This document shows positions 13,715 through 48,352 of a stretch of 64,000 bases of DNA, one piece after another. The position numbers and the translations under genes were made by a program. Positions within the stretch are counted from its first letter, which is position 1. Each line of letters starts with the position of its first letter. Source of the DNA: a candidate division FCPU426 bacterium (GTDB taxonomy: Bacteria > Oederibacteriota > JAAXVQ01 > JAUVAV01). The notes beneath the pieces are model-generated. The model saw nothing but the letters and a program-made list of their open reading frames with translations. It had not been told where the DNA came from and searched no databases. The stretch lies in the NCBI GenBank assembly GCA_040756875.1, contig JBFLYH010000002.1, positions 703,078 through 767,077 on the forward strand, written 5' to 3'.

Positions 13715-13753
13715 CGAAGGCCGCCTCCTCGCGAACGCTCCGGCTTAATATTT

Positions 13754-13899: not shown

Positions 13900-13943
13900 A
13901 GATTGCTTCGTTATCCCATTACTGGAGACACCTCGCAATGACA
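13900..13943. repeat. half of a GATTGCTTCG...CCTCGCAATGAC palindromic (REP/RPE-like) element
   Basis: AGATTGCTTCG..N20..CCTCGCAATGACA resembles one arm of a widespread palindromic repeat family (recalled, not searched). Confidence 0.5.
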
Positions 13944-14035
13944 CCTCTTAACTCATTGATACAGGTAGCCGATCACTTAAAAAACGCTTGCCCAAACCGC
14001 AGGGGGCATGGTATTTTCGCCCACACGGCTATAAC

Positions 14036-24888: not shown

Positions 24889-25151
24889 AGATGATTGAAA
24901 CCTCCATCTCCTCAGCCCGCTTAGGAACAGGACGCATGGTTGAGAAAGCGTTTGCGAAAAGGACTGGTCGTCATACCTTTTCGCCCCGACAGGTTTGATA
25001 TGGGACTCCCGTTGGTCGCAAACCGAGGCTGCCCGGAGCGGATTTTATGGGCGACGTGCTCGGAGAGGTGCTTCCTTGCGGAGAGTGCACCCTATGGCAG
25101 CCGTCTTTCTAAACCATGCGTCCTGTTCTTAATAGGGCCCTTTACACGCTC

Positions 25152-26156
25152 ATGCCCCTGATCCTGGTCACCGGCGCCGCCGGATTCTTCGGTTCTGCCA
25201 TCACCCGCGCCCTGCTGGCAGCAGGCCATGCGGTGCGCGCGCTGGTTGAGCCCGGAGACCCTGCGCCCGGCCTGGCCGGCCTGGCCGTGGAACGCGCCGT
25301 TGGCGACGTGCTGGAGCCGTCTTCGCTGGCCGCGGCCTGCCAGGGCTGCCAAGCCGTGGTCCACGCGGCCGGTTGGACCAGCATGCGCGTGGCCAGGCGC
25401 AGCCGCCTGCGCCTGATCAACGTGGACGGCACGCGCAATATCTGCCAGGCCGCGCTGGCTGCCGGCGTTCCCAAGCTGGTTTACATTTCCTCGCTGGGCG
25501 TGCTGGGCGGCCACCCGGCCCCCTTGCCCGTAAACGAAATCTCGCCTGCGCCCAATGCGATGACCCAGCGCCAAACCTACCACCGCTCCAAAATCCGGGC
25601 CGAGGGCATCGCGCTGTCCTTCACCAGCCTGGGCCCGGAGGTGTGCGCCGTGCTGCCGGGAATGCTTTGGGGCCCTGGCGACTGGTCGATCTCCTCCACG
25701 GGCCTGGCCCGCCTGGTGCTCAAACAGCGCCGCGCGCTTTATCCGCCGGGCGGCACCGCGCTCCTGCACGTGGATGACGCGGCCCAGGGCGTGCTGCTCG
25801 CCCTGGAGCGCGGACAAAACGGCCGGCGCTACGTGCTGGCAGGCGACAACCTCACCAACGAGCAATTTTTCACTATGATTTGCCAGGCCGCGCATCCGGG
25901 CCTGTCACCCAAACCCGTGTCTTTGGGCCTGGTGACCATCACCGCGCTTGTGGCCGAAGGGCTCGGCCGCCTGGGCTGGGACGTGGATTTTTCGCTGGAT
26001 ACCCGGCGCCTGTGCGGAATTTACTGGTGGGGAGACGACAGCCGGGCGCGGAAGGAACTGGGATGGTCGCCCGCGCACAGCGCCGCGGAAACCATCGCCG
26101 CGACCGTGGCCTGGCATTGGGAGCACCTGAAGGATTTAAACGCCAATAAAAACTAA
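25152..26156 (+). CDS. NAD-dependent epimerase/dehydratase (HpnA/dihydroflavonol-reductase-like)
   Basis: VTGAAGFFG, HAAG, YHRSK, HVDDAA; start set at MPLILV. Confidence 0.85.
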   Translation: MPLILVTGAAGFFGSAITRALLAAGHAVRALVEPGDPAPGLAGLAVERAVGDVLEPSSLAAACQGCQAVVHAAGWTSMRVARRSRLRLINVDGTRNICQAALAAGVPKLVYISSLGVLGGHPAPLPVNEISPAPNAMTQRQTYHRSKIRAEGIALSFTSLGPEVCAVLPGMLWGPGDWSISSTGLARLVLKQRRALYPPGGTALLHVDDAAQGVLLALERGQNGRRYVLAGDNLTNEQFFTMICQAAHPGLSPKPVSLGLVTITALVAEGLGRLGWDVDFSLDTRRLCGIYWWGDDSRARKELGWSPAHSAAETIAATVAWHWEHLKDLNANKN

Positions 26157-27207: not shown

Positions 27208-28446
27208 TCAATGTGGCCCCGCGTCCAGCAGGGCCAGTCTGAGTTCGTTCAGGGCCAGGGTGGCGGCCAGGCGCTGGATGCGCTCGCGCTCCGCGGCGTC
27301 CGGCGGCGTCCCCATGTTCAGCAGCCAGCGTTTGTGCACGGTCTTGCGGCCGGGCCCGGCCAGGCCCAGGTAGACCAGGCCCACGGGTTTGGCCTGCGAA
27401 CCTCCGCCGGGCCCGGCGAGGCCGGTCGTGGCCAGCCCCCAATCCGCGCCCGCGCTCCGGCGCACGCCAGCGGCCATGCGCTCGGCCGTCTGCGCGCTGA
27501 CCGCGCCCCAGCGCGCCAGCAGGGGCTGCGGCACGCCCAGGCGTTTGGTCTTGGAGGCATTGGCGTACGCCACCACGCCCTCCAGAAAATATGCCGAACT
27601 TCCGGGCACTGAGGTCAGGCGGCTCGCGATCCGGCCGCCGGTGCACGATTCGGCAACTGCCAGGGTTTGACCCCGCGCCTGCAGCAGCCGGCCGACCACG
27701 GCTTCGAGGCTGCGGCCGCGGCTGTCCACCAGTTCCGCGCCCAGCACGGCCGCCAGCCGGCGCTGCGCCGCGGCCGGCGCCAGGTTCGGGCCGGACAGGC
27801 GGATCAGGATTTCGCCGGGCTCCTCGAGGGTCATGCCCCAGTCGCCCAGCTGCTCTGACAGGGGCTCCAGCCGCATCATGAGCAGGGATTCGGAAAACCC
27901 GCAGACGCGGTACAGGCGTTCAGCGAGCGGGCGGCCCGGCCAGCGCAGGGCAGGCAGCAGCCCGGCGTCGAACATGGCCAGGCATTCCGACGGCGGCCCG
28001 GGCAAAGCAGCCACCCAGCCCGACTTGACGGGCAGCAGAAACCCCGGCGCGGTCCCGCGGGCATTGGCCAGCGGCGTCGCGCCCCGGGGAATCAGGGCCT
28101 GCACGCGGTTGATCGCGGGCATGGGACGCTTCAGCCGGCGAAAGCGCGCCTCGATTTTTTTCATCAGCTCCGGATGGAAGCACAGCGGGCGGCCGCAGGC
28201 CTTGGCCACGGCCTGGCGCGTGACGTCGTCGCTGGTGGGCCCCAGGCCGCCGCTGCACAATACCAGCACGCCCGGCTTGAGCGCCGCGCGGATGGCCCGG
28301 GCCACGGACTCCAGGTCATCCGGCAGGACCATCCGGATGTTCGTCGGCACGCCCGCCCGGCGGAGCCGCCGGGCCAGTTCCAAACTGTTGCTGTCCTGGC
28401 GGCCGGACAAAAGCTCGGTGCCGATGGCAAGCAAGGCCGCGCGCAT
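27208..28446 (-). CDS. cinA: CinA competence/damage-inducible protein (NMN deamidase fusion)
   Basis: IGTELLSG, GGLGPTSDDVT, AVAESCTGG, GAVS, TGLAGPGGG. Confidence 0.92.
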   Translation of the reverse strand: MRAALLAIGTELLSGRQDSNSLELARRLRRAGVPTNIRMVLPDDLESVARAIRAALKPGVLVLCSGGLGPTSDDVTRQAVAKACGRPLCFHPELMKKIEARFRRLKRPMPAINRVQALIPRGATPLANARGTAPGFLLPVKSGWVAALPGPPSECLAMFDAGLLPALRWPGRPLAERLYRVCGFSESLLMMRLEPLSEQLGDWGMTLEEPGEILIRLSGPNLAPAAAQRRLAAVLGAELVDSRGRSLEAVVGRLLQARGQTLAVAESCTGGRIASRLTSVPGSSAYFLEGVVAYANASKTKRLGVPQPLLARWGAVSAQTAERMAAGVRRSAGADWGLATTGLAGPGGGSQAKPVGLVYLGLAGPGRKTVHKRWLLNMGTPPDAAERERIQRLAATLALNELRLALLDAGPH

Positions 28447-29199
28447 CTACGTCACCAGCCCGCCGTCCACGACCAGCACCTGGCCGTTGATGTAGCGGGC
28501 CTCGTCGGACAAAAGCCAGACCACGGCCGCCGCGATTTCATCCGGCTCTCCGAAGCGGCCGAGCGGAATGGTCTGAAGGGCCCAGTCGCGGATCCGGTCC
28601 GGCAGGCTGGCGGTCATGCGCGACGTCACGTACCCAGGGGCCACGGCATTCACCCGCACGCCGAAGTGCCCGGCTTCCCGGGCCAGGGACTTGACCAGGC
28701 CCAGCACGCCCGCCTTGGCGGCCGCATAATTGGCCTGACCCACCGACCCGGTCAGGGCCGCGATCGAGGACACGTGCACCATGGCGCCCTGTTGCTGCTT
28801 GAGCTGGTCGAAAATCAGGGCACGGGAAAAAAAGAAGGCCGCGTCCAGGTTGGCGTCCAGCACTTCCCTCCACTCCGCTTCTTCCATGCGCGCGAACACG
28901 AGGTCGTGGAGATGGCCGGCGCAGTTGGCGAGGTAATCCGCCGGGCCGCGCCACTCCCGGACTTCGGCCGCAATCCGCCGCGCGGTTTCCAGCCGGTTCT
29001 CGGCCACGGCCCAGCCGCGCACCGCTCCGCCCAGCTCTGTTTCCAGTGCCTTGGCGGCCTCCTGGTTGCTGTGATAGGTAAAGGCCACCTGCAGCCCGGC
29101 GGCTGACAGCCGGCGCACCACGCAGCGGCCGATGTCGCCCGTGCCGCCGGCCACCAAAGCCACGCGGCCGCGGAAATGAAGTCCGTTGTCCGTGTTCAC
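28447..29199 (-). CDS. 3-oxoacyl-ACP reductase (FabG-like)
   Basis: GGTGDIG, GQANYAAAKAG, VNAVAPG, IPLGRFG, VDGG. Confidence 0.88.
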   Translation of the reverse strand: MNTDNGLHFRGRVALVAGGTGDIGRCVVRRLSAAGLQVAFTYHSNQEAAKALETELGGAVRGWAVAENRLETARRIAAEVREWRGPADYLANCAGHLHDLVFARMEEAEWREVLDANLDAAFFFSRALIFDQLKQQQGAMVHVSSIAALTGSVGQANYAAAKAGVLGLVKSLAREAGHFGVRVNAVAPGYVTSRMTASLPDRIRDWALQTIPLGRFGEPDEIAAAVVWLLSDEARYINGQVLVVDGGLVT

Positions 29200-29238
29200 C
29201 TGCCTGCCTCCGCCTCGTCTGTTTTCGGCCCGTTCGCT

Positions 29239-29925
29239 TCAGATTTCAGCATGATCCCTTTCGGTTTCGTATAATTGCCGCACCCGCGCCTCCAGTTCCC
29301 GGTTCAGCCGGCGCGCGGCCTTGGGCAGAATCTCCCCGGGTTCGAGCCGCCTGACCATGGGCGCGCCGAACCGCACCTCGATGGGCCGGCGGCGCGGCCA
29401 CCAGCGGCCGGCAGGCAGGGCCTCGAAGGTTCCCCGCACGGCCACGGGCACGAGCGGAACGCCGCTGTCGAGGGCCAACATGGCCAGCAGGGGCTTAAAG
29501 GGCAGCAGCGACCCGTCGCGGGTGCGCGAACCCTGGGCGAACATCAGCAGCGAATATCCGGCCGCCAGCAACTGCCGCAGCCGGCTGTACTCGTCCAGGG
29601 TGGCCTGGCGCCGGTTGAGCGGAAAATTATGGTATGAGAGCCATTGCGTGACCCAGCGCCGCCAGGGCTGCTGGTAAAAAAAATCCGCGGCCGCAGCGAC
29701 ATAGGTGCGCCGCCGCAGCGCCGCGGGCATTCCCTCGAGCACGGCCCAAAAATCCAGATGGCTGGCGTGCGTCGGGGCCAGCACCACCTGCCCCAGCCCG
29801 GTCAGGCGTTCCGTGCCGATGGCACTCCACCCGCACCAGCGCTTCAGGACCAGACTCAGGGCCTGCCGCGCCACATGTTGCGTCGCACGCCGTGGCCAGG
29901 GCGGTGGAAATCCGGGCAGGTCCAC
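29239..29925 (-). CDS. lysophospholipid acyltransferase (PlsC family)
   Basis: HASHLD (HX4D), FAQGSRT (FPEGTR-like), VPVAVRG. Confidence 0.88.
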   Translation of the reverse strand: MDLPGFPPPWPRRATQHVARQALSLVLKRWCGWSAIGTERLTGLGQVVLAPTHASHLDFWAVLEGMPAALRRRTYVAAAADFFYQQPWRRWVTQWLSYHNFPLNRRQATLDEYSRLRQLLAAGYSLLMFAQGSRTRDGSLLPFKPLLAMLALDSGVPLVPVAVRGTFEALPAGRWWPRRRPIEVRFGAPMVRRLEPGEILPKAARRLNRELEARVRQLYETERDHAEI

Positions 29926-29928
29926 GCT

Positions 29929-30408
29929 TCACACCCGGGCGAAAAAGATTACGCACCGCGCCGCCACATCTTCGCCGATGCGGGCTTCAATCTCGTACAT
30001 GGCGTTGTTGCTCAACGCCTTCAACTGCCGGCCGATGATGAGCAGCTGGTCCCCGGGTTCCGGGCTCCGCTTGAGCTCCACGTGCTTGATCCGGGTCAGC
30101 AGGACGCGCAACGGCGGCACCCGCTTTTGCAGGTATTCGTCGTACGAACCCGCGGTTTGGGCCATGCACTCCAGCAAAATGCTCCAGGGCAGGCGGTAGC
30201 CCTCCTGTTCCGAGTACACCATGCACCATTCGTTGCGCGTGATGTTTTTCAGCACCCGGATTTCGTTGTCGTCCCGCACCAGGATCCTGTCGATGAAACG
30301 GTAGGGCGGCTGGCTTTCCACAAACCGGTCCGGATGCTCGGGATCAGGCCCGGCGGCCGCCAGGTGGACCTTGAAGTGTTCCAAACGCGTCGGATCGTCC
30401 ATGTTCAA
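29929..30408 (-). CDS. FabZ/FabA hotdog-fold dehydratase-like protein lacking the HFP histidine
   Basis: PPYRFIDRI, KNITRNE, LLECMAQ, PGDQL; start uncertain (30408 or 30402). Confidence 0.7.
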   Translation of the reverse strand: MNMDDPTRLEHFKVHLAAAGPDPEHPDRFVESQPPYRFIDRILVRDDNEIRVLKNITRNEWCMVYSEQEGYRLPWSILLECMAQTAGSYDEYLQKRVPPLRVLLTRIKHVELKRSPEPGDQLLIIGRQLKALSNNAMYEIEARIGEDVAARCVIFFARV

Positions 30409-30436
30409 TCCGGCCGCCTTTCGCGAAGAATCTCCG

Positions 30437-31630
30437 TCATGCCGCCTCCAGCACCAGGGCCGCGGCTTTGCGGTCCTGCTCCAAAGCCAGCACCACGGCC
30501 CGCTTTCCGGACACTGCCCGCGCCTCGCGGTTCAGGTTTATCCTTTGCGCCAGTCCCGCGTCCCCCAGGTTCAAGGTCCCGGGGATCCGCCCCTGCCTCA
30601 GGCACTCCAGCGCCAACACGGCCGCCAACGTCCCGTGCGCGTGATACGTCTCGCCCAGCGCCCCTTTCAAGGCCGTGGCTGGCGGCAGGTTCCCGCCGAA
30701 CACGCGCTCCAGCGCCTTGGCTTCGGCCTGGTCTTGCGACGCGTGGCCGTTCCCCGCCACGAACACCGCCGACACGTCCCGGGCCTCCAGCCCGGCCTGC
30801 TTCAGGGCCTGGCGCAAAGCCGCTTCCGCTGCCGCGGGATCTCCGCCCTTTGCTCCGGGATTCACGCCCATCCCGCTCCCCAACAGACCACCCAGCACCC
30901 GCGCCCCGCGCGCGCGCGCCTCGCCTTCGGTCTCCAGCATCATCAAACCGCACCCTTCGCCCGCCGTGATCTGGTTCGGCGCGCCTAGCCTCAGGGCCGT
31001 TGCCTGCCCTGCGTCCGCGTTCCGCCGGAATGCCTGGTGGAAACTGTAGCGGAACTGCTCGTTGCGCTCCTCGGCGCCGCCGGCCATCACCCAGCGCGCG
31101 CGGCCCGCGCGCAGGGCCAGCGCGGCCTGGTCCAGGGCCTCCAGCCCGGCGGTGAACCCCGTGGTCACGGTCATCGCGAACGCCTGCGCCTTCAGGTAGA
31201 TCGTCACCTGCGAGGCCGTGGCATTGGTGGAAATGTTCAGGAAAAACGCCGGATTGAGCAGGCTGAGGTTTTGGTTCCGGATGGTCTCCACGAACTCTTC
31301 GGAAAAAATGTTGTGGTTGTATCCCATGACCAGGCCCGCGTCTTCGGGGCGCCACGCCTGCTCCAGGCCGCTTTCCTTCCTCAGCTCCCGCGCCGCCAGG
31401 CACGCCATCAGCGCCGCCCGGTTGTGGTTGCGCCAGCCCTTCCCGCCCAGCGCCTGCTTCAGGTCCGCGCCCACTTCGCCGAACCAGGCCGCTTCCTTCA
31501 CTCCGAGCGCTTCCAGGCCGCAGGGGTTCAGTCCGCTCCCGCCTTCCAACAGCCGGTTCGCCGCCTCCTCCGGCGAGGCCCCCAGGCTGCACACCAGGCT
31601 CGTCCCCGTGACCACCACGCGTTCCCTCAT
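30437..31630 (-). CDS. ketosynthase-like chain-length factor (non-catalytic), copy 1
   Basis: KS fold with TTGFTAG in place of the Cys motif, VAGNG and GETY in place of the His motifs; ATGA-coupled to the upstream KS. Confidence 0.82.
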   Translation of the reverse strand: MRERVVVTGTSLVCSLGASPEEAANRLLEGGSGLNPCGLEALGVKEAAWFGEVGADLKQALGGKGWRNHNRAALMACLAARELRKESGLEQAWRPEDAGLVMGYNHNIFSEEFVETIRNQNLSLLNPAFFLNISTNATASQVTIYLKAQAFAMTVTTGFTAGLEALDQAALALRAGRARWVMAGGAEERNEQFRYSFHQAFRRNADAGQATALRLGAPNQITAGEGCGLMMLETEGEARARGARVLGGLLGSGMGVNPGAKGGDPAAAEAALRQALKQAGLEARDVSAVFVAGNGHASQDQAEAKALERVFGGNLPPATALKGALGETYHAHGTLAAVLALECLRQGRIPGTLNLGDAGLAQRINLNREARAVSGKRAVVLALEQDRKAAALVLEAA

Positions 31631-32886
31631 CGCCGCCATCCCGCTTCAGCCACTTCGCCAAACACCAGGCTGTCGTTGTTCCCGCCGAATCCCGAGGAGT
31701 TCGTCAGGCACGTGCGCAAACGCAGGCTCCGCGCTTTCCGCACTACTTCCACCGGGCACTCCGGGTCCGTCTCCTCGTGGTTGATCGTCGGCGGCAGCGT
31801 CTGGTGCTTCAGGCTCAGCACGCCGATCACCGCTTCGATCGCGCTCGCCGCTCCCATCGCATGCCCGATCATGGACTTGGGCGCGGTCACCGGCGGCACG
31901 CGTTCCCCGAACACTTCCCGGAACGCCTGGGCCTCGGTCCGGTCGTTCCCCGGCGTTCCGGTCCCGTGCGCCACGATCCCGTCAATCTCCTCCGCCTTCA
32001 GCCCCGCATCCTTCAAGGCCAGGGCCACCGACTGCCGGGTCCCCCACCCTTCGGGGTGCGGCGTGGACAGGTGGTACGCGTCGCTCGACCACCCATATCC
32101 CAGCACCCGGGCGTAGGCTTTCCCGCCCCGTTGCCTCAGGCTCTCGCCGGATTCCAGCACCAGCGCCGCTCCGGCCTCGCCCATGATCAGCCCCCGCCGC
32201 GCGCGGTCAAACGGGCGGCAGCAGTCCGGCGCCATGGCCCGCAGGCTGCAAAAGCCCGTGTAATCCGGCTCGGCCAGCAAATCCATGCCGCCGGCCAGAA
32301 CCACGTCGGCCAGGCCCTGGCGAATGCGCTCCACGGCCAGGGACAGCGCGTAGCCGCTGGCCGCGCAGGCGTTCGTGTTCGTGCTCTGCCAGCCCGTGAG
32401 CCCCAGCCGCTGCGCCATCTGGTAGAGAAAGCTGTAGGTCACGTTCTCGCTCACGATGTCGCGCGTGACCTCCAGGGCGCTGGCCAGGTCCTGCGTTTCC
32501 CAGGTCCGCTTGCAGCGCACCACGTGCTCGTTCAGGTCGCCGTGGGTGGTGCCGAACACCAGGTCCACGGCGCCGTGCTGCGAGCGCTGGTCCGCGCCCA
32601 GCCACCCCGCGTCCGCCAAGGCTGCCCGGCCGGCCGAGAGCGCCAGCCGCGCCGCCGGATCCAGGGCTTTTTGTTCCTCAGTGCTCAAGTTGCGCAGGCC
32701 GTCCAAATCCTTGATCTGCGCGGCCATGTGCACGGGCAGCCAGCGGGTGTCGAAGCGCGTCACCGGGCCCACGCCGGACGTCCCGGCGACCAGGGCCGGC
32801 CAGAACGCCTCCGCGCCCGCGCCCAGCGGCGTGTTCAGGCCCAATCCGGTCACATAGACTTCAGGCCTGCCGGCGCGGGCCGTCAT
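31627..32886 (-). CDS. beta-ketoacyl-ACP synthase (KS), copy 1
   Basis: NACAAS (Cys), AHGTGT, KSMIGH, GFGGNN; true start is the ATGA overlap with the Lnt-like stop, not the 807-aa ORF start. Confidence 0.92.
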   Translation of the reverse strand: MTARAGRPEVYVTGLGLNTPLGAGAEAFWPALVAGTSGVGPVTRFDTRWLPVHMAAQIKDLDGLRNLSTEEQKALDPAARLALSAGRAALADAGWLGADQRSQHGAVDLVFGTTHGDLNEHVVRCKRTWETQDLASALEVTRDIVSENVTYSFLYQMAQRLGLTGWQSTNTNACAASGYALSLAVERIRQGLADVVLAGGMDLLAEPDYTGFCSLRAMAPDCCRPFDRARRGLIMGEAGAALVLESGESLRQRGGKAYARVLGYGWSSDAYHLSTPHPEGWGTRQSVALALKDAGLKAEEIDGIVAHGTGTPGNDRTEAQAFREVFGERVPPVTAPKSMIGHAMGAASAIEAVIGVLSLKHQTLPPTINHEETDPECPVEVVRKARSLRLRTCLTNSSGFGGNNDSLVFGEVAEAGWRR

Positions 32887-34637
32887 GCCGGCCTCTCCTG
32901 GCCGGACTTGGAAAAACGCTCGCGCCCCCAGCTCCAGGCCATCATCGCGACCAAAACGGCGGTCAGGCCCAGCACCAGCCATCCCATCCAGTCGCCGCAG
33001 CGCACGTAAACCGTTTTTCCGTTGAGCAGGGGCAGGCGTTTGACCAGCGCCGCGCGCTGGCCGAAGGGCGCGCGGTCGCGGACCAGGCCAAGCGGATCCA
33101 CGTACGCCGCGCTCGCCGTGCTCGAAACCAGCCCGACCCAGCGCCGGGTTTCCACGGCGCGGAAGCAAGCCATCTGCAGGCGCATGTTGAAAAACACCGG
33201 CGTGGGAAACCAGTTGCCCGTGCCGGCGTTCAGGATGACCTCGCCGCCCAGGCGCACGCCCTGGACGAAATACTGAGGAAACATGATTTCCTCGCACACC
33301 CGCAGGATCACCGCGCCCTGCGGCAGCTGGAACACCTTGCTGGCCGATCCAGGCGACAGGTCTTTCATGTCCTCGTCCACGGAGGTAAGCTTGAGCAGTT
33401 CGTAGGTCGTCGCGAAAACACGGTTCAGCAGGCGGATCGCGCCGTTCACCAGCGGCCGGCCGGGCATGTATTCCCCGAAGGGTATGAGGTACTGCTTCAG
33501 GTAATAATCGCGGATCTTTCCCTTCGCGTCGACCAGGTACCAAACATTGAAGCGCCGTTCGGAGTCCAGGGCGGTGACCAGCCCGATGATCGCCGGCACG
33601 CCCGCCTCCTCGAGTATGTCCTGGAAGTCCCGCCACACCTTGGCCGTGGAGGGCAGGGTCAAGGGCAGTGCGCTCTCGGTAAAAACCAGCAGCTCGGCGC
33701 GGTCGGCTTTGGCGTTCAGGGCCAGCCGGCGGAAAAGGACGATGGCGGACTGCTTGATGCGTTCGCTCCACTCGCCATAATTGCCCGCGTCGAACTGCCC
33801 CTGCAACAAGGCCGGACGGAGGCTGCGCTCGGCCTGCGATTGCAGGCGTTCCACCTTGGCCGCGTCGAGGTTGCCGGCCACGATCAGGGCCGCGAAGCCC
33901 AGGCCCAAAACCGCGGCCATCAGGCTGTTGACGAGAAGCGGGCGCCCCTCCGCGGCCGGCACCTTGCCGGCAAGCACGGGCTCGGGCCGGCGCACATCCC
34001 AGGCGCGCAGGAAGCGCCAGGCCAGGAGGGCCAGGCCGGCGGCCACGCACAGCACGAAATAATCAGCGCCCAGCACGCCGGTCAGGGACGCCATTTGCAT
34101 GAGCGGCGGAAGCCCGGCCAGCGGATACGCATACAGCAGAATGGGCGGCGGGAAGAACCAGATTTTGGGCGTCAGCACCAGGCGCAGAAATTCGAAGGCC
34201 GCAAAATTCGCCGGTGCGAACAGCAAATACCAGGCGGGAAAGCGGCGGATGCAGGCGCCGGCCCACAGGCCCACGTTCCCGAAAATGCCGTACACCATGG
34301 CCGCGAGAAAAAGAAAAATCAGCGGCGTGGCCAGGGGAAACGAGGGCAGCATCTCGAACCACAGGGTGGCGGGAATCAAAAACATGGCCAGGCCGGACAG
34401 GCCGCACCAGCGGTAGGCTTCGCGGCCCTGGTAGCGCAGCATAATCATGAAGGTGGGCATTGGCACCAGAAACACCAGCAGCGCGGACAGGATGTTCGAC
34501 TCCGGCAGCAGGTAATTGGGCCACGCGAGATAGGCGCACAGCGCCTGCAGGATCAGCAGCCATGGCATGGGGCGTTTCAACGCGGATACCATCCATCCCC
34601 TCCGGGTCTCAGGCGCCGGTTTTTCGGCGAGCCGCAA
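32883..34637 (-). CDS. apolipoprotein N-acyltransferase (Lnt)-like, paralog 1
   Basis: Multi-TM N-terminus, nitrilase triad FTES/YLKQYLIPFGEY/VCEE, FRAVE, TVYVRCGDW; start uncertain. Confidence 0.85.
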   Translation of the reverse strand: MRLAEKPAPETRRGWMVSALKRPMPWLLILQALCAYLAWPNYLLPESNILSALLVFLVPMPTFMIMLRYQGREAYRWCGLSGLAMFLIPATLWFEMLPSFPLATPLIFLFLAAMVYGIFGNVGLWAGACIRRFPAWYLLFAPANFAAFEFLRLVLTPKIWFFPPPILLYAYPLAGLPPLMQMASLTGVLGADYFVLCVAAGLALLAWRFLRAWDVRRPEPVLAGKVPAAEGRPLLVNSLMAAVLGLGFAALIVAGNLDAAKVERLQSQAERSLRPALLQGQFDAGNYGEWSERIKQSAIVLFRRLALNAKADRAELLVFTESALPLTLPSTAKVWRDFQDILEEAGVPAIIGLVTALDSERRFNVWYLVDAKGKIRDYYLKQYLIPFGEYMPGRPLVNGAIRLLNRVFATTYELLKLTSVDEDMKDLSPGSASKVFQLPQGAVILRVCEEIMFPQYFVQGVRLGGEVILNAGTGNWFPTPVFFNMRLQMACFRAVETRRWVGLVSSTASAAYVDPLGLVRDRAPFGQRAALVKRLPLLNGKTVYVRCGDWMGWLVLGLTAVLVAMMAWSWGRERFSKSGQERPA

Positions 34638-36273
34638 CTACGGTCAGCAACAGCGTCAGCAGTACGCACAGCCAGGCAAACACATCTCCGAACCGCGCGT
34701 AAAAAGTCAGGCCGTCAAGCAAGGGCAGGGTCGGCACGGCCACCACCCGCTTCCCATAAGGTGTTTCACTCCGCACCGCGCCCAGGGCGTCGATTGTGGC
34801 CGCCGCGCCCATGTTGGCCACCACCCCGATCCAGCGCCGGGTCTCCACCGCCCGGAAGGCGCTTGTCTCCAGGTTTAAATACCAGTCCACCGGCGTCTTG
34901 AACCAGTTGACGGTCCTGGGCGTGAGAATCACATCGGCGCCTTGCATGACCGCCTGCCTGAAAAACCGGGGAATGATCGTTTCAGTGCATACCTTCAGCG
35001 CCACCCGTGCGCCGGCCACGTCAAATATTTTTTCCTGTTTGCCGGCACGAAGATCATAGTAATCCCGCGGAATGGCCGTAATTTTCAAGACCCGATAGGA
35101 CGTGCGCAAGAGTTTGTTTACTCCCGTCATCACCGGGTCCACCAAGCTGCGCAAGGGCAGGTACTCGCCAAACGGCGTCAGGTAGCGTTTGAGGTAATAA
35201 TCCTGGACCGTTCCCTGGGCGCTGATCAAATACCAGATATTGAAAACCTGCTCCTCCTCCACCGTGGTCGTAAGCCCCACGAAGGCCGGCAGGCCCACTT
35301 CCTTGAAGATGGTGCGGAGGTTCTGCCAGGCGTGCTCGTCCGCCGGCAGGGTCATGGGCAGTGCGTTCTCGGTGAAAACCAGCACCTGACCGCCTTGGGC
35401 CAGGGCTTCCAGGCTCATGTCACGATAGGTGCGCAGGGCAAATCCCTGCTGGGGCCTGCTCCAGTCCTTGGCCCGCGAGGGATCGAACTGGGATTGCAGC
35501 AACGCGGGACGCAGCGTGCGCCGCGCCTGGTCCTGCAGGCGGCTGACGCGCAGGGCGTCTACGTTACCCAGCATGAACAGCGCGAACAAAACCGCCACCG
35601 TGCCGCTGGCCACGGCCACTGTGAGGGTCCGCTGTCCGGGAGCGAGGGCGGGTATGTTCTGGGTGACGGGGAGGTGGGTGCGAAACCACGCCAGGCGGCC
35701 AAGAAGCGACAGCGCGACCAAGGCCAGGAGGGAGCTGATGAAAAAGGCAAGGAAAGCCGGTCCGTAGTATCCGGTGTAGGCGCTCATTTGGATCAGGGGC
35801 GGAAGCCCGGCAAAAGGAAAGGCAAACAACAACGAAGGAGGCGGCACCAGTGAAAAATGCTCGGCCAGCAGCACGCGCATGAACTCCTGGTTGCAAATGA
35901 TGGCCGGCGCCGCCAGGGTGAACGCCCAGGGCAGGCGCCGGTAAATGAACGAACCCAGATAACCGCAGGCGCCTCCCAGCAGAAAGGACAGCGCCAGTAC
36001 CAGCAGCCAAATCAATACGCCGGTCACGGGAAAGAAATTCATATGGACCAGGTGGACGGTCGGCAAAAGAACCATGGCCACTACAGATAATCCGGACCAC
36101 ACAAAAACCTGCCTCCCCCGGTAGGCCAGGAAGATGATGAAGTAGGTCGCGCCCATCAAGGGCAGGAGCAGGGCCGAAACGGGGTTGGGCCGGTAAAGGA
36201 TGGGGTTGGGAAACGCCAGAAAGGCAATCAGCGCCTGGATCAGCAGCAAACTTACGGAGAGAAAGGCTGGCAT
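34609..36273 (-). CDS. Lnt-like N-acyltransferase, paralog 2
   Basis: FTEN/YLKRYLTPFGEY/VCTE, FRAVE, TFYARFGD. Confidence 0.85.
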   Translation of the reverse strand: MPAFLSVSLLLIQALIAFLAFPNPILYRPNPVSALLLPLMGATYFIIFLAYRGRQVFVWSGLSVVAMVLLPTVHLVHMNFFPVTGVLIWLLVLALSFLLGGACGYLGSFIYRRLPWAFTLAAPAIICNQEFMRVLLAEHFSLVPPPSLLFAFPFAGLPPLIQMSAYTGYYGPAFLAFFISSLLALVALSLLGRLAWFRTHLPVTQNIPALAPGQRTLTVAVASGTVAVLFALFMLGNVDALRVSRLQDQARRTLRPALLQSQFDPSRAKDWSRPQQGFALRTYRDMSLEALAQGGQVLVFTENALPMTLPADEHAWQNLRTIFKEVGLPAFVGLTTTVEEEQVFNIWYLISAQGTVQDYYLKRYLTPFGEYLPLRSLVDPVMTGVNKLLRTSYRVLKITAIPRDYYDLRAGKQEKIFDVAGARVALKVCTETIIPRFFRQAVMQGADVILTPRTVNWFKTPVDWYLNLETSAFRAVETRRWIGVVANMGAAATIDALGAVRSETPYGKRVVAVPTLPLLDGLTFYARFGDVFAWLCVLLTLLLTVVAARRKTGA

Positions 36274-36482
36274 GTTTGCTTGCCCTTTCTTCAGTCAGCC
36301 GATATGGAGCCCTCCGGGCATGCCCGGGGTACCCATTCCTGCCCTGCGTTTCTTGCAGGATAGGCGGCGACATCCTCGCAGCAGAAGATCCGCATTCATC
36401 CCCGGCCATAGGCCGGGGTTTCCTGCGAAGGGGATGAAGTGGAGCCGCGTCGCGTTTCCGGGCCTTCTCCCAGCGAAGCTGC

Positions 36483-38171
36483 CTACGGACGCCGGGTGGC
36501 GGCGAACGCGACCAACAGCAGTATCACCAATACGCACAGCCAGGCAAACAGGTCGCCGAAGCGTGCGTAAAAAGTCAGACCGTCCAGCAACGGGAGCGTC
36601 GGCACGTCCACCGCCCGTATTCCGTAGGGTGTTTCGCTCCGCACCACGCCCAGGGCGTCGACGGTGGCCGCGGCGCCCATGCTGGCCACCAGGCCGATCC
36701 AGCGCCTGCTTTCCACCGCCCGGAACGAACAGGCCTCCATGTTCAAATACCAGTCCACCGGCGTTTTGAACCAATTGACCGCCCTGGGCGAGAAAAACAC
36801 TTCCGCTCCCTGGTTGACCGCCTGCCTGAAAAACCGGGGGATGGTGGTCTCGGTGCAGACCTTGAGGCTGACCCGGGCGCCGGCCACGGCGAACACCTTC
36901 TCCTCCCGTCCTGCGCCCAGATCGTAATGATCGTTGGGAATGGCGGTGATTCTGAAAATTTTATAGCTCGTGTTGAGCAAGGCGTTTACGCCGCCCAGCA
37001 CCGCATCCACCAATCCGCGCAAGGGCAAATACTCGCCAAAGGGGGTTAAGTACCGCTTGATATAATGATCCTCCATTTCGCCTTGCGCGCTGATCAGATA
37101 CCAGACATTGTACGTTTCCTCGTCTCCCACGGTGGTGATCAGGCCCACGAAAGCCGGCAGTCCGGTTTCCCTGAAAATGCCGCATAAATGCTGCCAGGCC
37201 TGCTGTTCCCCGGGCAGGGTCAGAGGCAGCGCGTTTTCAGTGAACACCAGCACCTGGGCCTGCTTGGCCACGGCTTCGTAGCACATCTGCCGGTAGGTGC
37301 GCAGCGCGAATCCCCTCTGGGGCGGGCCCCATTCCGGAGCCTGGGAAGGGTCGAACTGGGATTGCAACAGGGCGGGCCGGATCACGCGCTGCGCCTCCTT
37401 TTGCAGGCGGCTGAAGCGCATCGCGTCCGCGTTTCCCAGCACAGCCAGGAACAACAGGCCCGCGGCCACGGCCACGGACACCAGGCCGGCCAGCCGGCGC
37501 TGGGGCGCGGTTAAAACCAGATCCGGCTTGATCCAGCCGGCCCGCGCCAGGAATTCCGCCGCAACTTGGGCCAGGACCGCGCCGACGAAAAACACCATGA
37601 GCGCCGGCCCGTACAAACCCGTGAACGCACTCATTTGGATTAAAGGCGGCCAGCCGGCCAGGGGCAGGGACAGGGTGAACGACGGAGGCGGAACCAGCGA
37701 AAAAACTTCCGACAGCAGGACCCGGCCGAATTCCTCGCCGCACAGCAAAACCGGGGCCGACAGGGAAAACGACCAGGGCAAACGCCGGAAGATGAATGCG
37801 CCCAGGGACCCGTAGGCGCCGCCCAGCAGGAACGTCAGGGCGAGCGTCAGCAGCCAGAGCAACGCGCCGGTTACGGGAAACAAACTAATTTGGGTCAGGT
37901 GAAACGTCGGCAACAGGACAACAGCCGCCACGGAGAGTCCGGTCCAGAGAAAAGCCTGGCGCCCGCGGTATAGCAGGACAAATAAAAAAACCGGGGCCAA
38001 CGCGAGCGGCAACAGCAGGGCTGACACCGGATTGGGTTTCATGAGCAGGGGGGTGGGATAAGCCAGGAAAGCCATGAGTGCTTGCACCAGCAATACCAGC
38101 ACAGACACCTGCATCGGCATTTTCTTTGGGTCCTTTCCTCTGCCGGACGATTCCCGGTACGGCAACTTCAC
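36483..38171 (-). CDS. Lnt-like N-acyltransferase, paralog 3
   Basis: FTEN/YIKRYLTPFGEY/VCTE; long identical blocks shared with paralog 2. Confidence 0.85.
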   Translation of the reverse strand: MKLPYRESSGRGKDPKKMPMQVSVLVLLVQALMAFLAYPTPLLMKPNPVSALLLPLALAPVFLFVLLYRGRQAFLWTGLSVAAVVLLPTFHLTQISLFPVTGALLWLLTLALTFLLGGAYGSLGAFIFRRLPWSFSLSAPVLLCGEEFGRVLLSEVFSLVPPPSFTLSLPLAGWPPLIQMSAFTGLYGPALMVFFVGAVLAQVAAEFLARAGWIKPDLVLTAPQRRLAGLVSVAVAAGLLFLAVLGNADAMRFSRLQKEAQRVIRPALLQSQFDPSQAPEWGPPQRGFALRTYRQMCYEAVAKQAQVLVFTENALPLTLPGEQQAWQHLCGIFRETGLPAFVGLITTVGDEETYNVWYLISAQGEMEDHYIKRYLTPFGEYLPLRGLVDAVLGGVNALLNTSYKIFRITAIPNDHYDLGAGREEKVFAVAGARVSLKVCTETTIPRFFRQAVNQGAEVFFSPRAVNWFKTPVDWYLNMEACSFRAVESRRWIGLVASMGAAATVDALGVVRSETPYGIRAVDVPTLPLLDGLTFYARFGDLFAWLCVLVILLLVAFAATRRP

Positions 38172-38252
38172 GCCCGTTCCGAAAAACGCCTGCTTTTTTG
38201 GGCTATTCCGGCGCCCGCCAAGCGCCGCGGATTCAAATGCGCCGGATATCCT

Positions 38253-38291
38253 TGAATAATAACATACTTTGCGAGGATCGCCAAAACGTAT
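38253..38291 (-). promoter_or_regulatory. conserved 39-bp promoter element, copy A (upstream of the Lnt-like genes)
   Basis: Minus strand ATACGTT-TTGGCG-N17-TATTAT with TG; 33/39 identical to 43347-43385. Confidence 0.75.
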
Positions 38292-38352
38292 CTCCGCTTC
38301 ATCTTGCTGGCGCTGGATGGAACCAATGGTGCGGCAGGACCAGGGGGGAGGT

Positions 38353-39531
38353 TTAGGCGGGCAATTCCAGCAGGCAGGCCATGGCTTTGCGATCCTGGTC
38401 CAGGGCCATGACCATGGCCCGCCGGGCGTTCAATGGACGAGCCGTCATAGGCAGGTAAAGCTCGCGCGCGGCCCCAGACGAAGGCAAACGCTGCGTTGGC
38501 AACAGGAGGCGATGCTCGAGGCAGAGAATGGCCAGCACTGCGGCCATGGCACCGGCGGCGTGCCATGTTTCCCCCAGTGCTCCCTTGAGCGCGGTCATGG
38601 GCGGCCGCTGGTTCCCAAAAACGTTTTTCATGCTTTCCATCTCAGCCTGATCCTGCGCCGGATCGCCATTGGCGGCAAGAAAAACCGCTTCCACGTCCCC
38701 GGCCTTCCAGCCGGCGTCAGCCAAAGCCGCGGCGATGGCTTGGTTGCAGGCGCGGGGATCGCCTTGGCCGGCTGCCTCCGGATTATATGCCATGCCAAAG
38801 CCGCATAGCCGGGCCCTGGGGCGCAGCCCCTGTTGACGAGCTTCGTCGGCTCTCAACAAAAACATCCAGGCTGAGCCTTCTCCGAGATCAACGGCGCCCG
38901 GACGCCAGCCCTCCAGGATTCCCGTCCCTGATCCGGGGGGAGCGCCGGGCCCGGAAAAACCCCGCACCATTCTGGCACTGATTTCCTGAACCGCACCGGC
39001 TGCCACCTGCCGGGCCCGGCCGGTGGATAAAACCCGACACGCGGTTTCCAATGCTTCCAGCCCGGCCGTATGCCCGGTGGACATCGTCAAAATGAACGCC
39101 TGGATCCCGAGGAGGATCGACACTTGGCTGGCCGTGGCATTCGCCGACAGATTCAGAAAAAAGAAAGGGCTCATCAGATGATATTCGCGGGTGGACAAAA
39201 CCTGCAGGATGGTGTCGGAATAAATGTCCGGCGTGAATCCGGTCACCAGGCCGGTCTCCGCCGCCGCCGGTGGCTGCCCCGTGTCTTTCGCCCAGGCCTG
39301 CCACAAGCGGCGGCACGCTGCGCCGGCCAGCAGGGACGAACGTGTGAACCCCTGTTTTTTTCCGTTGCCCAGCAACACCCGGAGGTCCTGGGACACCGGG
39401 GCGCTTTCGGTCCCGTCGGACCCGCGTGTCAATCCCTGCCGGCCGGCGGCCAGGCTATCGAAAACCGCCTGCGGGTCGTCGCCCAGGGCATGCACCAGGC
39501 CAAGGTGGGTGATTACGATCGCGTCTTTCAC
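38353..39531 (-). CDS. ketosynthase-like chain-length factor (non-catalytic), copy 2
   Basis: STGHTAG, LAANG, GETW; paralog of 30437-31630; GTGA-coupled to KS copy 2. Confidence 0.82.
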   Translation of the reverse strand: MKDAIVITHLGLVHALGDDPQAVFDSLAAGRQGLTRGSDGTESAPVSQDLRVLLGNGKKQGFTRSSLLAGAACRRLWQAWAKDTGQPPAAAETGLVTGFTPDIYSDTILQVLSTREYHLMSPFFFLNLSANATASQVSILLGIQAFILTMSTGHTAGLEALETACRVLSTGRARQVAAGAVQEISARMVRGFSGPGAPPGSGTGILEGWRPGAVDLGEGSAWMFLLRADEARQQGLRPRARLCGFGMAYNPEAAGQGDPRACNQAIAAALADAGWKAGDVEAVFLAANGDPAQDQAEMESMKNVFGNQRPPMTALKGALGETWHAAGAMAAVLAILCLEHRLLLPTQRLPSSGAARELYLPMTARPLNARRAMVMALDQDRKAMACLLELPA

Positions 39532-40742
39532 GCAGGCCCGCTTTCGGCCTGCTGCAAGATCAGGCTGAGGTTGTTGCCGCCGAATCCCATGGCATTGACC
39601 ATGCACGTTTCCAGTCTGCCCGCCTTGGGCTCGGACACGACTACGGGCAGCGGACAGTCCGGATCCATCTCGATCGTTTCGGAAACCGGCGGGATCTGTC
39701 CCTCCCGCAGCATGAGCGCCGCAGACAGAATGTCAACCGCCTGGGCCGCGCCCTGTGAATGCCCCACGCGGGGTTTGAACGCCGTGACCGGCGGCAGGTC
39801 CGGACCGAAGACCGCCTGCAGGGCCCGGGCTTCCGCGCGGTCGTTGCTGGGCGTTCCGGTGCCGTGAGCCACCACACAGCTGATCTGCGCAGGCGCCAGC
39901 CGGGCCGCCTGCAACGCGCGCCGCATGGCGGTTTCCAGACCTTCGCCGCGGGGCCGGGGCGCGGAAATATGATAAGCGTCCGCGGACCAGCCTTCTCCGG
40001 CCAGTCGCGCCCACGGCCGCGCGTTCCGGCTCCGCGCGGAATCGGCCGATTCCAGAAGAAACATGGCGGCCGCGTCGCCCAGCATCGTGCCTTCTCGGCC
40101 ACGGTCGAACGGCCGGATGCACGACGGCGCCAGGGCCCGCAGGTTGGCGAACCCGGCCTGCACGACCTCGGCAAACAGGTCCGCAGCCCCGCACAAGACC
40201 GCTTCCGCACGCTCCAGGCGGATGAGGTCCGCGGCCAGGGAAACAGCGTACCCGGCCGCGGCGCAGGTGTTGGTGTTCAACCCCTGGGCCTCCCGCAATC
40301 CCAGCGCCCGGGCCATGTCCGTTAAAAAAGCATAGGGTTGCCGCTCACGAAATCCCGCGCCCAGGGTCTCCTCCGGTTCCCTGCGCAGGTAGTTTTCGCC
40401 GTCATTCAAACCGCCGTTGCTGGTGCCGAGCAGCACGGCGAGGCTAGGCAACCGGCTGCGCCGCTCCTCTGACAGCAGGCGGGCATCCGCCAGAGCCTGC
40501 CGCGCGGCCGACAAAGCGGCGGCGGCGAGCCGGCTGAGGCGTCCGGTTTCCTCCGGGTCCAGCCACTGATCAGCGGCCAATGGCTCGATTTCGGCGCCGC
40601 GAACAAAAGCCAGGCCCTGGGTATTGAATTTTTGTATGGGTTTTATTCCTGAACGGCCTTCCAGGCAGGCTTGCCAATAAGGCGCTACGCCGATTCCCAG
40701 TGGCGTAACCGCTCCCATCCCTGTGATCCAAACATCCCTCAT
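39528..40742 (-). CDS. beta-ketoacyl-ACP synthase (KS), copy 2
   Basis: NTCAAA (Cys), AHGTGT, KPRVGH, GFGGNN. Confidence 0.92.
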   Translation of the reverse strand: MRDVWITGMGAVTPLGIGVAPYWQACLEGRSGIKPIQKFNTQGLAFVRGAEIEPLAADQWLDPEETGRLSRLAAAALSAARQALADARLLSEERRSRLPSLAVLLGTSNGGLNDGENYLRREPEETLGAGFRERQPYAFLTDMARALGLREAQGLNTNTCAAAGYAVSLAADLIRLERAEAVLCGAADLFAEVVQAGFANLRALAPSCIRPFDRGREGTMLGDAAAMFLLESADSARSRNARPWARLAGEGWSADAYHISAPRPRGEGLETAMRRALQAARLAPAQISCVVAHGTGTPSNDRAEARALQAVFGPDLPPVTAFKPRVGHSQGAAQAVDILSAALMLREGQIPPVSETIEMDPDCPLPVVVSEPKAGRLETCMVNAMGFGGNNLSLILQQAESGPA

Positions 40743-40862
40743 GGTTCTTCCTTGTTCGTTTGATCCTGCCACCCGGCCTGCGGGATGGGCATCATGACCA
40801 GGTGCCAAAGCAGACAGGAAGCTTTTGGACCGTATTCGCCGCTTGACGCCGCGTGGAGCCGG

Positions 40863-41174
40863 TCAGCCCGCGCCCCCGCCGCTTTCAGAAGGAGGCGCGG
40901 ACGGCGTCCGGGCTTTATCTTCCATTTTCCGGCGGATGAGCTCGACCACCTGGCCGAGCTGGGTCACCTGTTTCAGATCCTCCTCGGAAAGACCCACGCC
41001 GTAGCGGCGCTCCAGGGTCACCAGGACCTCGAGCAGGGCCACGGAATCGATCTGCATGATCTGTTCCAGTGAACCGTCGAGCCGCACCTGGTCGGGGTCC
41101 ACTTCCAACACCTCGACCACGAGGTCCTTGATTTCCTGTTCCAGATTTTCGGGGATAGGTTTCTGCTCGGTCAT
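40863..41174 (-). CDS. acyl carrier protein
   Basis: Small and acidic; QIDSVALLE phosphopantetheine-attachment motif; ATGA overlap with the SPFH gene. Confidence 0.85.
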   Translation of the reverse strand: MTEQKPIPENLEQEIKDLVVEVLEVDPDQVRLDGSLEQIMQIDSVALLEVLVTLERRYGVGLSEEDLKQVTQLGQVVELIRRKMEDKARTPSAPPSESGGGAG

Positions 41175-48349: not shown

Positions 48350-48352
48350 GGA

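Follow-up and report, generated by a model that had tools for sequence, protein, structure and literature searches.

Three tandem Lnt-like genes in a conserved operon of acyl carrier protein, ketosynthase and PlsC-type acyltransferase genes in a candidate division FCPU426 bacterium

Introduction

Apolipoprotein N-acyltransferase, Lnt, acts by a ping-pong mechanism at the outer face of the inner membrane, where it takes the sn-1 chain of a phospholipid on a cysteine and then passes that chain to an amine. Here we analyse three adjacent genes for Lnt-like proteins, which we call Lnt1, Lnt2 and Lnt3, in 64,000 nucleotides of DNA from a candidate division FCPU426 bacterium (GenBank assembly GCA_040756875.1, contig JBFLYH010000002.1, positions 703,078 to 767,077 of the forward strand). 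This whole stretch is the window, and coordinates given without a prefix count from its first letter. The original prediction, made from the letters of this DNA, held that the three genes encode active enzymes with a changed donor or acceptor, expanded by tandem duplication. The decisive context, absent from that prediction, is the operon in which the genes lie, which also encodes an acyl carrier protein (ACP), ketosynthases (KS) with chain-length-factor-type partners (CLF), a dehydratase (DH), an acyltransferase (AT) and a ketoreductase (KR). In what follows, G000 is the genome of the window and other G numbers are further genomes, L numbers are loci, and P numbers are database representatives.

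Results

The locus

The three Lnt-family open reading frames (ORFs) are intact and stand in tandem on the minus strand, in a co-directional and tightly packed set of genes that is transcribed in the order ACP, KSa, CLFa, Lnt3, Lnt2, Lnt1, KSb, CLFb, dehydratase, acyltransferase, reductase, CinA. The genes are listed below in that order, with protein lengths in amino acids (aa), followed by a neighbour on the plus strand.

40863..41174, minus strand: acyl carrier protein, 103 aa, first gene of the module; PF00550 PP-binding (E 1.2e-10) and NCBIfam ACP models
39528..40808, minus strand: KSa, FabF-like ketosynthase, start uncertain; PF00109/PF02801; fabF 281 bits, below cut-off
38353..39606, minus strand: CLFa, KS-like partner, start uncertain, ORF overlapping KSa; PF00109/PF02801, weak
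36483..38171, minus strand: Lnt3, Lnt-like N-acyltransferase, 562 aa from a GTG; likely ATG at 38120, giving 545 aa
34609..36273, minus strand: Lnt2, Lnt-like N-acyltransferase, 554 aa; CN_hydrolase and TIGR00546 matches, AlphaFold2 model
32883..34637, minus strand: Lnt1, Lnt-like N-acyltransferase, 584 aa from a TTG; likely ATG at 34592, giving 569 aa
31627..32886, minus strand: KSb, FabF-like ketosynthase; PF00109/PF02801; fabF 332.8 bits, below cut-off
30437..31639, minus strand: CLFb, KS-like partner, 400 aa; PF00109/PF02801 in this frame only
29929..30408, minus strand: FabZ-like hot-dog dehydratase, 159 aa; NCBIfam FabZ (E 6e-11), below cut-off; weak FabA Pfam match
29239..29925, minus strand: PlsC-type (lysophospholipid acyltransferase, LPLAT) acyltransferase, 228 aa; PF01553 (E 4e-17); HX4D motif (HASHLD)
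28447..29199, minus strand: FabG-like 3-oxoacyl-ACP reductase, 250 aa; adh_short_C2 (E 2e-53); TIGR01830 233 bits, below cut-off
27208..28446, minus strand: CinA-family gene, abutting the reductase gene; family matches
25116..26156, plus strand: HpnA/OleD-like extended short-chain dehydrogenase/reductase (SDR); Pfam Epimerase/3Beta_HSD; HpnA 189.6 bits, below cut-off; SdmB and OleD matches

The TGA stop of Lnt1 overlaps the ATG start of KSb (ATGA). The likely ATG starts of Lnt1 and Lnt3 are suggested by orthologues and by the database entry P0004, and the ACP translation carries the serine motif DSV. We set aside as spurious an ORF of 418 aa at 30405-31661, which lies in another frame over CLFb, and the ORFs at 38168-38566 (132 aa), 36295-36774 and 35564-36409, all of them without a family match.

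Two unusually long gaps flank Lnt3 in this otherwise packed operon. The gap upstream (38121-38352, 232 nt) holds a promoter-like site at 38284-38256, and the gap at 36274-36482 (209 nt) holds a GC-rich hairpin without a T tract.

Family, catalytic triad and fold

All three proteins match the CN_hydrolase family. Against the lnt model TIGR00546 they score 143.1 (Lnt1), 132.3 (Lnt2) and 128.6 bits (Lnt3), so that only Lnt1 passes the cut-off of 132.9 bits; on Pfam LNT_N the scores are 19.9 bits for Lnt1 and 17.5 bits for Lnt3 against a cut-off of 27.1, with no match for Lnt2. The Glu-Lys-Cys triad is intact in each, as had been claimed, and can be read both in the translations and in the alignment as FTES/FTEN, then YLK/YIK followed by PFGEY, then VCEE/VCTE. 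The lysine, K362 (E. coli K335), is invariant in alignments of 9 and 17 rows, and HMMER pairs it with the Lnt lysine. Lnt2 and Lnt3 do share the identical blocks first noticed in them (RPALLQSQFDPS, GFALRTYR and NWFKTPVDWYLN) and are 66% identical overall, and Lnt1 is indeed the more distant copy, at 40% identity to Lnt2.

An AlphaFold2 model of Lnt2, computed from a 57-row alignment, has a mean pLDDT of 92.2 and a pTM of 0.94. The top 20 or so fold matches of this model in the Protein Data Bank (PDB) are all Lnt structures, at 18-20% identity, with TM-scores against them (best: E. coli and P. aeruginosa) of 0.75 by query and 0.83 by target; the next matches after Lnt are soluble amidases and carbamoylases, which cover the nitrilase domain only. 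The model has eight transmembrane (TM) helices, as in Lnt, with the CN-hydrolase domain placed between TM7 and TM8. Arginines and lysines are concentrated in those loops whose Lnt counterparts are cytoplasmic, with one such residue among the three short loops on the outer side. This distribution fits the Lnt topology and supports a predicted active site that faces the periplasm.

The ratio of non-synonymous to synonymous substitution rates (dN/dS, NG86) is 0.20 for Lnt1 against its orthologue in G032, 0.16 for Lnt2 against its own orthologue and 0.24 for Lnt3 against Lnt2, values that are rough because dS is 0.8-1.0, near saturation.

A clade apart from canonical Lnt

The genome contains six Lnt-family genes, along with one gene each for Lgt and LspA. 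Three of the six are canonical copies located elsewhere, which score 256-275 bits on TIGR00546. In order to place the paralogs, we used a tree of 38 rows that comprises the three paralogs, 11 relatives, the three canonical copies of the genome, E. coli Lnt and 20 other canonical Lnts (15 hand-picked from about 60 canonical ORFs of L011-L072 and 5 from P0011-P0029, the remainder being left out). In this tree, obtained by a quick IQ-TREE search under LG+G4 that gave long-branch warnings, the paralogs and their relatives form a 14-row clade with an SH-aLRT of 100 and a stem length of 1.03, which excludes all canonical sequences, including the three of the same genome. The paralogs thus do not fall inside the canonical Lnt clade of their lineage, as they might have done had the original prediction been wrong.

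A profile search of 1.84 billion representative proteins, with 20,098 Lnt-family matches at E <= 0.001, returned 14 full-length proteins at 380 bits or more, the next full-length protein scoring 181 bits; besides these there is at least one clade-level fragment (P0054, 216 aa, 263 bits). In a word-based search of 5.8 billion clusters, eight close relatives are followed by a drop from 414 to 84 bits. By these comparisons the paralogs constitute a rare, well-separated clade of the Lnt family, and they would not be the cell's housekeeping lipoprotein N-acyltransferase. No fused forms appeared at E <= 1e-10 among proteins of 971-2770 aa, which is weak evidence.

Two of the canonical genes, L002 and L003 (G000:C2:1076571-1077818 and 1099431-1100711), are separated by 23 kb and group as sisters in the tree. 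Both carry Ala or Ser at the position of F416, which is essential in E. coli, and Ala at P266. Therefore, the genome may hold one fully canonical Lnt only, L001 on C1.

Changes around the substrate cavity

We compared the clade with canonical Lnt in a 58-row alignment of 13 clade rows, the three canonical Lnts of this genome, 41 other canonical Lnts and E. coli Lnt (K-12 record). The motif changes listed beforehand for the three paralogs are real. W265-P266-E267 becomes F-T/N-E in 11 of the 13 clade rows and F-P-E in 2; Y388 becomes T, E, I or D in 13 of 13, against F, Y or W in all 41 other canonical rows; N412-D413-A414-W-F becomes [TAS]-[VGS]-[NE]-W-F; and Q424-H425 is lost, Q and H each being present in 37 of the 41 other canonical Lnts. 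The alignment adds a change that had gone unmentioned, from G145-F146-P147-W148 to P-P-P-x, with proline at 145 in every clade row. Retained in all 13 rows are the equivalents of E267, E343, P346, C387, E389, W415, F416 and E435. The clade also keeps W237 and G342, with T, I or V at V339. When the three paralogs are aligned with 14 representatives of the clade, 15 of the 17 sequences keep the triad.

According to the portion of PMC5500890 available, the segments L143-W148, Y388 and D413-F416 of E. coli Lnt line the substrate cavity, and G145, V339, G342, Y388 and F416 are essential. This essential set is not conserved whole in the clade, G145 and Y388 being replaced in 13 of 13 rows. The same portion of PMC5500890 describes the Y388W variant as inactive although the acyl-enzyme still forms, and it is on this ground that Y388 is tied to the second, acceptor step. 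The paralogs appear to keep everything that the first half-reaction calls for. Their cavity is altered, and one of the altered positions is that which, in E. coli, is associated with the second half-reaction. Because the cavity residues essential in E. coli are not all kept and the paralogs are placed outside the canonical clade, we would assign the three genes to the Lnt superfamily by fold and triad, and not to Lnt in the functional sense.

The claim that these are active enzymes with an altered donor or acceptor is indirectly favoured by the retained triad and E343/E389/E435, the intact frames, the dN/dS values of 0.16-0.24, the full predicted Lnt fold and the replaced cavity residues. On these grounds the three genes look functional, as catalytically competent, specialised acyltransferases of the Lnt family.

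Conservation of the operon

We searched 99 genomes of the phylum for the Lnt clade (E <= 1e-70) and for the CLF type (E <= 1e-60). The clade is present in 10 genomes (G000, G032, G023, G024, G026, G027, G031, G020, G021 and G022), all of which belong to two families of a single order; none of the 84 genomes outside the order has it. The CLF type occurs in the same 10 genomes and in G025 (87% complete), and the other genomes of the 99 lack both types. Across the 10 genomes, 15 of the 16 clade genes sit in an ACP/DH/AT/KS/CLF/KR cluster, whose recurring core is ACP-Lnt-DH-AT-KS-CLF-KR. For example, an ACP orthologue lies upstream of the Lnt-like gene in L007, L008, L010, L086, L088 and L089, the FabZ-like dehydratase is conserved beside the Lnt-like gene in related loci, and the CinA gene trails the cluster in four genomes of family f1 (G000, G032, G027 and G026). 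Two of the clade genomes, the sources of L008/L009 and of L010, bear the NCBI labels Candidatus Firestonebacteria and Candidatus Goldiibacteriota. The same arrangement is seen on two metagenome contigs; these come from a scan with a generic pattern, in which clade members make up 2 of the 80 loci kept. Among sequencing datasets, none of RNA is listed as containing this DNA, and the one of DNA that does is a groundwater metagenome, which may be its source.

As a control, we compared 140 canonical-Lnt loci (92 of at least 8 kb) with the cluster proteins of the window. There were no ACP, DH or AT matches and 3 KS matches, and the cluster itself is carried by 0 of the 140 loci. On one contig, L047, from a delta-proteobacterial metagenome-assembled genome, a KS gene follows a canonical-type Lnt gene within 0.5 kb, and the contig also has a 1366-aa ORF with an Lnt-like region (81.6 bits). 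L047 may represent another, unrelated association of Lnt with KS.

Two neighbours of the cluster deserve mention. In G022, the Lnt-like gene is immediately preceded by a gene for a B12-binding radical SAM protein (L091:8312-9862), which has weak matches to the lipid-biosynthesis model TIGR04072 and to the hopanoid methylase HpnR and may be a chain-modifying addition in that species. The HpnA/OleD-like SDR recurs as a neighbour: in L086 and L090 it is close to the cluster, and in L008 it directly precedes the ACP gene; it is a candidate member of the pathway only, and that role is unproven.

History of the copies

The Lnt1-type and the Lnt2/3-type groups of the 38-row tree each contain members from other genera of the family. 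The split between Lnt1 and Lnt2/3 is therefore old, and in the tree it comes before at least three genera of the family had parted. Lnt2, its G032 orthologue, P0005 and P0006 form a group of their own, with Lnt3 branching off outside it; on this topology, Lnt3 separated from Lnt2 before the two species of the genus diverged. The cluster of G032, a member of the same genus, reads only ACP-Lnt2-Lnt1-DH-AT-KS-CLF-KR. In the KS tree, KSa and CLFa are long, deep branches and not recent copies of KSb and CLFb, and we therefore regard the cluster of the window as a composite of two modules, in which Lnt3 comes together with the deep-branching second KS/CLF pair. Of the proposed tandem duplication, then, the tandem arrangement of three genes stands, but a simple expansion does not agree with the old split or with the arrival of Lnt3 alongside a second KS/CLF pair. 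Elsewhere in the tree, a Firestonebacteria-labelled genome has duplicated its Lnt gene independently.

Partner enzymes and chain type

KSa and KSb both have the Cys-His-His active site. In CLFa the cysteine is replaced by His and in CLFb by Phe, and each has lost both catalytic histidines; we classify CLFa and CLFb as chain-length-factor-type partners because of these losses. The best PDB sequence matches of KSb are 9s5h_B, the KS-CLF complex 6kxd_A (E 2e-78) and FabF 1j3n_A, which are about equal (E 6e-81 to 5e-78). CLFb matches 9s5h_C best, followed by ApeR 7f27_A (E 9e-28). The identities of 7F27/7F28 and 6KXD are taken from PMC8358021 and PMC10698177.

The sole PDB sequence match of the acyltransferase is PlsC, 5kym. 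The protein also matches TIGR00530, an Aas-type acyl-ACP:phospholipid model (E 8.6e-10; 37 bits against a cut-off of 1221) and the OlsA model (E 1.6e-5), in each case weakly. Among the cluster genes (27208-41174), family searches found no enoyl reductase, cyclase, thioesterase or exporter. A Cys-His-His KS, a Cys-less CLF and a discrete ACP, KR and DH make up the set of a highly reducing type II polyketide synthase (PKS). The parts list would fit a polyene-type synthase of that class, and it would fit an acpXL-lpxXL cluster equally well.

Comparison with known systems

The paralogs resemble the Lnt proteins of E. coli and P. aeruginosa (PDB 5n6h, 5n6m, 8b0l and others) in the eight-helix membrane domain, the outward nitrilase domain, the Glu-Lys-Cys triad and E343/E389/W415/F416/E435. 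They differ in their low identity (18-20%), their separate clade, the replacement of G145-W148, Y388, N412-A414 and Q424-H425, and the ACP/KS-CLF/DH/AT/KR operon.

A precedent for a non-essential Lnt homologue that serves one pathway and is encoded in the operon of that pathway comes from enteroaggregative E. coli, where AatD of the Aat system acylates the dispersin Aap (PMC7478709, in the part available). AatD adjoins an ABC/TolC-type exporter and acylates one secreted protein, whereas the partners here are of fatty-acid or polyketide type; this distinction is drawn from descriptions of the two systems. Family searches found no ABC, TolC-type or cargo gene in or beside the cluster.

In the lysophospholipid cycle of E. 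coli, the lyso-phosphatidylethanolamine produced by Lnt is flipped back by LplT and re-acylated inside the cell by Aas from acyl-ACP. The shuttle that we propose below follows the same logic, and the acyltransferase of the operon has its weak match to the Aas-type model. Unlike in that cycle, the ACP, the chain-building enzymes and the acyltransferase are co-encoded with the Lnt-like genes, and the cluster has no LplT-like flippase.

The acpXL-lpxXL cluster of Rhizobiaceae and Agrobacterium, which makes the very long chain of lipid A, shares with the present cluster an ACP, a FabZ-type dehydratase, two FabF-type genes, a dehydrogenase, an acyltransferase and the lack of an enoyl reductase, when the parts lists are compared by description (PMC11901934, in the part available). 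A further likeness, confined to genus g2, is that the present cluster lies inside a lipopolysaccharide (LPS) operon, acpXL-lpxXL serving lipid A. Insofar as that part of PMC11901934 describes it, however, acpXL-lpxXL contains no gene of the Lnt type and has a lipid A lauroyl acyltransferase, whereas the acyltransferase here belongs to PF01553.

The highly reducing type II PKS systems (ApeO-ApeC, 7F28; ApeR, 7F27; the KS-CLF 6KXD) likewise combine an active KS and a Cys-less partner with a discrete ACP, KR and DH and have no cyclase or enoyl reductase. A point of difference is that KSb matches an ordinary FabF (1j3n) equally well. Family searches of the cluster (27208-41174) found no ammonia-lyase, CoA-ligase, thioesterase or export genes. 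Aryl polyene clusters feature aryl-starter enzymes, a thioesterase and LolA/RND-type export genes, and none of these families has a match among the genes at 27208-41174. Among the papers listed by full-text literature searches, none ties an Lnt homologue to a KS/CLF or ACP cluster.

Other features of the window

Two genes lie directly upstream of the cluster region. A UbiA-family gene at 48353-49225 scores above the cut-off for decaprenyl-phosphate phosphoribosyltransferase, and a gene at 43718-48349 encodes a membrane protein of 1543 aa with PMT_2 and DUF2298/chlor_Arch_YYY domains; a DUF2298 gene adjoins the cluster in G027 and G032 as well. Together, the UbiA and DUF2298 genes (43718-49225) may form a polyprenyl-phospho-sugar glycosylation system. 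The window also encodes two giant, probable surface proteins. The first (49374-53660, 1428 aa) carries FG-GAP repeats in addition to ten LVIVD repeats, and the second (55695-59498, 1267 aa) combines FG-GAP repeats with one subtilase and one Big_7 domain. Finally, an island of low GC content at 9361-13999 (0.41-0.42, against about 0.65 around it) encodes a subtilase of 826 aa and an AAA ATPase of 322 aa that matches STAND weakly.

Discussion

We infer each chemical step, the donor and the acceptor in what follows from the family, fold, triad, clade, operon membership and conservation described above. The scheme to which we give an even chance of being correct is that the PlsC-type enzyme loads the acyl chain of the operon on a glycerolipid, and that the Lnt-like enzymes move this chain, via a Cys thioester, to an amine acceptor. 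In the cytoplasm, the module would assemble a special acyl chain on the ACP that it encodes, and the PlsC-type enzyme would move that chain from the ACP to a lyso-glycerolipid at the inner membrane face. The lipid would then reach the outer leaflet, where an Lnt-like enzyme, whose nitrilase domain is predicted to be periplasmic, would take the chain on its catalytic Cys as a thioester and hand it to the amino group of an envelope molecule. Acyl-ACP, because it is cytoplasmic, could not be the direct donor of the Lnt-like enzymes, and the co-encoded PlsC-type enzyme would be the obvious link between the ACP-bound chain and these enzymes. Since the freed lyso-lipid could be re-acylated, the glycerolipid would serve as a carrier that takes the custom chain across the membrane. 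The amine might belong to a lipoprotein N-terminus, to an amino sugar or ethanolamine carried by LPS or by a glycolipid, or to phosphatidylethanolamine. The acceptor position or the chain accepted probably differs from one paralog to another.

A number of observations weigh against this scheme. Two of the 17 clade sequences, P0052 and P0053, have lost the catalytic Glu and Cys; they are also without the NWF motif and may be pseudoenzymes. One triad-bearing copy, on G027:C27, is isolated, the 10 kb or so around it being free of cluster genes, and in G023 the acyltransferase and reductase were not found within the locus examined. All of the cluster-bearing genomes belong to one order, so the synteny reflects few independent evolutionary events. 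The acyltransferase is a generic LPLAT, whose PlsC, Aas and OlsA matches all fall far below cut-off, and family searches found no flippase gene in the cluster. The near-saturated dS and the long-branch warnings noted above count on the same side, and the evidence as a whole is comparative.

It is important to weigh the scheme against other accounts of the three genes. They could be redundant housekeeping isoenzymes, that is, ordinary apolipoprotein N-acyltransferases that use ordinary phospholipid donors and whose position in the operon is functionally meaningless. The fold, topology and triad are those of Lnt, Lnt1 exceeds the TIGR00546 cut-off, Lgt and LspA are encoded in the genome, and specificity in the family can be loose, since E. 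coli Lnt can replace the dedicated homologue AatD (PMC7478709, in the part available). We nevertheless consider this account improbable: three better-scoring lnt genes are found elsewhere in the genome, the paralogs are a separate clade on a long stem, all 13 clade rows have other residues in place of G145 and Y388, which are essential in E. coli, and linkage to the cluster holds for 15 of 16 clade genes against none of the 140 canonical-Lnt loci. A smaller departure would be to retain the shuttle and let the acceptor be a special subset of lipoproteins, whose diacylglyceryl-cysteine would be N-acylated with the unusual chain of the operon from a dedicated donor lipid, giving an unusual third chain. 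This is the smallest change from known Lnt chemistry; it agrees with the retention of W237, W415, F416 and E343, and the co-encoded ACP, KS-CLF and AT plausibly change the donor side. It is unlikely all the same, given that Y388, tied in the available part of the E. coli work to the step after the acyl-enzyme, is replaced in every clade row, and that no lipoprotein or Lol component is found among the cluster genes.

Two further accounts dispense with the shuttle. In an acyloxyacyl pathway of the ornithine-lipid type, a small amine or amino acid would be N-acylated by an Lnt-like enzyme, after which the PlsC-type enzyme would add a second, ester-linked chain, with no glycerolipid as carrier. 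The KR and DH could provide 3-hydroxyacyl chains for such a pathway, and the acyltransferase has its weak match to OlsA, the lyso-ornithine-lipid O-acyltransferase; but that match is weaker than those to PlsC and Aas, the predicted Lnt-type active site is periplasmic while acyl-ACP is cytoplasmic, and the distribution of the genome's own amino-lipid operon does not follow that of the clade, all of which leaves this pathway with little probability. We looked at that amino-lipid operon as a source of the acceptor as well and rejected it, as it shows no association with the Lnt clade across the 15 genomes of the order: when queried with its alpha-oxoamine synthase (G000:C1:910511-911764), 4 genomes have both the synthase and the clade, 6 the clade only, 4 the synthase only and 1 neither (the synthase being found in G000, G032, G026, G031, G028, G029, G030 and G019). 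Alternatively, the nitrilase triad might remove an acyl chain from the product of the module, as an amidase or a phospholipase A1-like enzyme would. The CN-hydrolase superfamily is mainly hydrolytic, and amidases and carbamoylases are the next fold matches after Lnt; such hydrolysis or remodelling is nonetheless very improbable in view of the whole eight-helix Lnt architecture and the Lnt-specific equivalents of E343, E389, W415 and F416, which are all kept.

Returning to the scheme of a glycerolipid-borne chain passed to an amine, a bolder version of it, which we hold only tentatively and rate as rather unlikely, is that the module is an undescribed system for the export and attachment of a custom chain, in which the Lnt branch acylates a non-protein envelope amine, such as an amino sugar of LPS or of a glycolipid, and the paralogs serve different positions or chain lengths. 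The gene order in genus g2 bears on the acceptor. In L088 (G023) and L089 (G024), the ACP-Lnt-DH-(AT)-KS-CLF set has glycosyltransferase genes on either side, being inserted in an LPS operon that runs from a UDP-GlcNAc 3-dehydrogenase-like gene, LpxB, KdtA, LpxK and a heptosyltransferase to a polysaccharide deacetylase and the O-antigen ligase WaaL. In the genome of the window, the LPS operon lies on another contig and has other genes at the corresponding spot, and outside g2 the cluster is not beside LPS genes. We therefore treat LPS as a candidate acceptor and not as a finding, the placement in an LPS operon being seen in one lineage only.

Lnt is usually treated as a single-purpose enzyme of lipoprotein maturation, and AatD, the one dedicated homologue that our searches turned up, acylates a protein as well. 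If the bolder version is true, the clade described here would contain the first Lnt-family enzymes in lipid biosynthesis rather than in protein lipidation. A branch of the family tied to its own ACP, chain-building enzymes and PlsC-type gene suggests that phospholipid-to-amine transfer may be recruited into a lipid pathway, and it would offer a testable route by which an acyl chain built in the cytoplasm reaches the outer face of the inner membrane. It may also open a way into the envelope chemistry of an uncultured lineage from groundwater, among whose relatives are those labelled Candidatus Firestonebacteria and Candidatus Goldiibacteriota.

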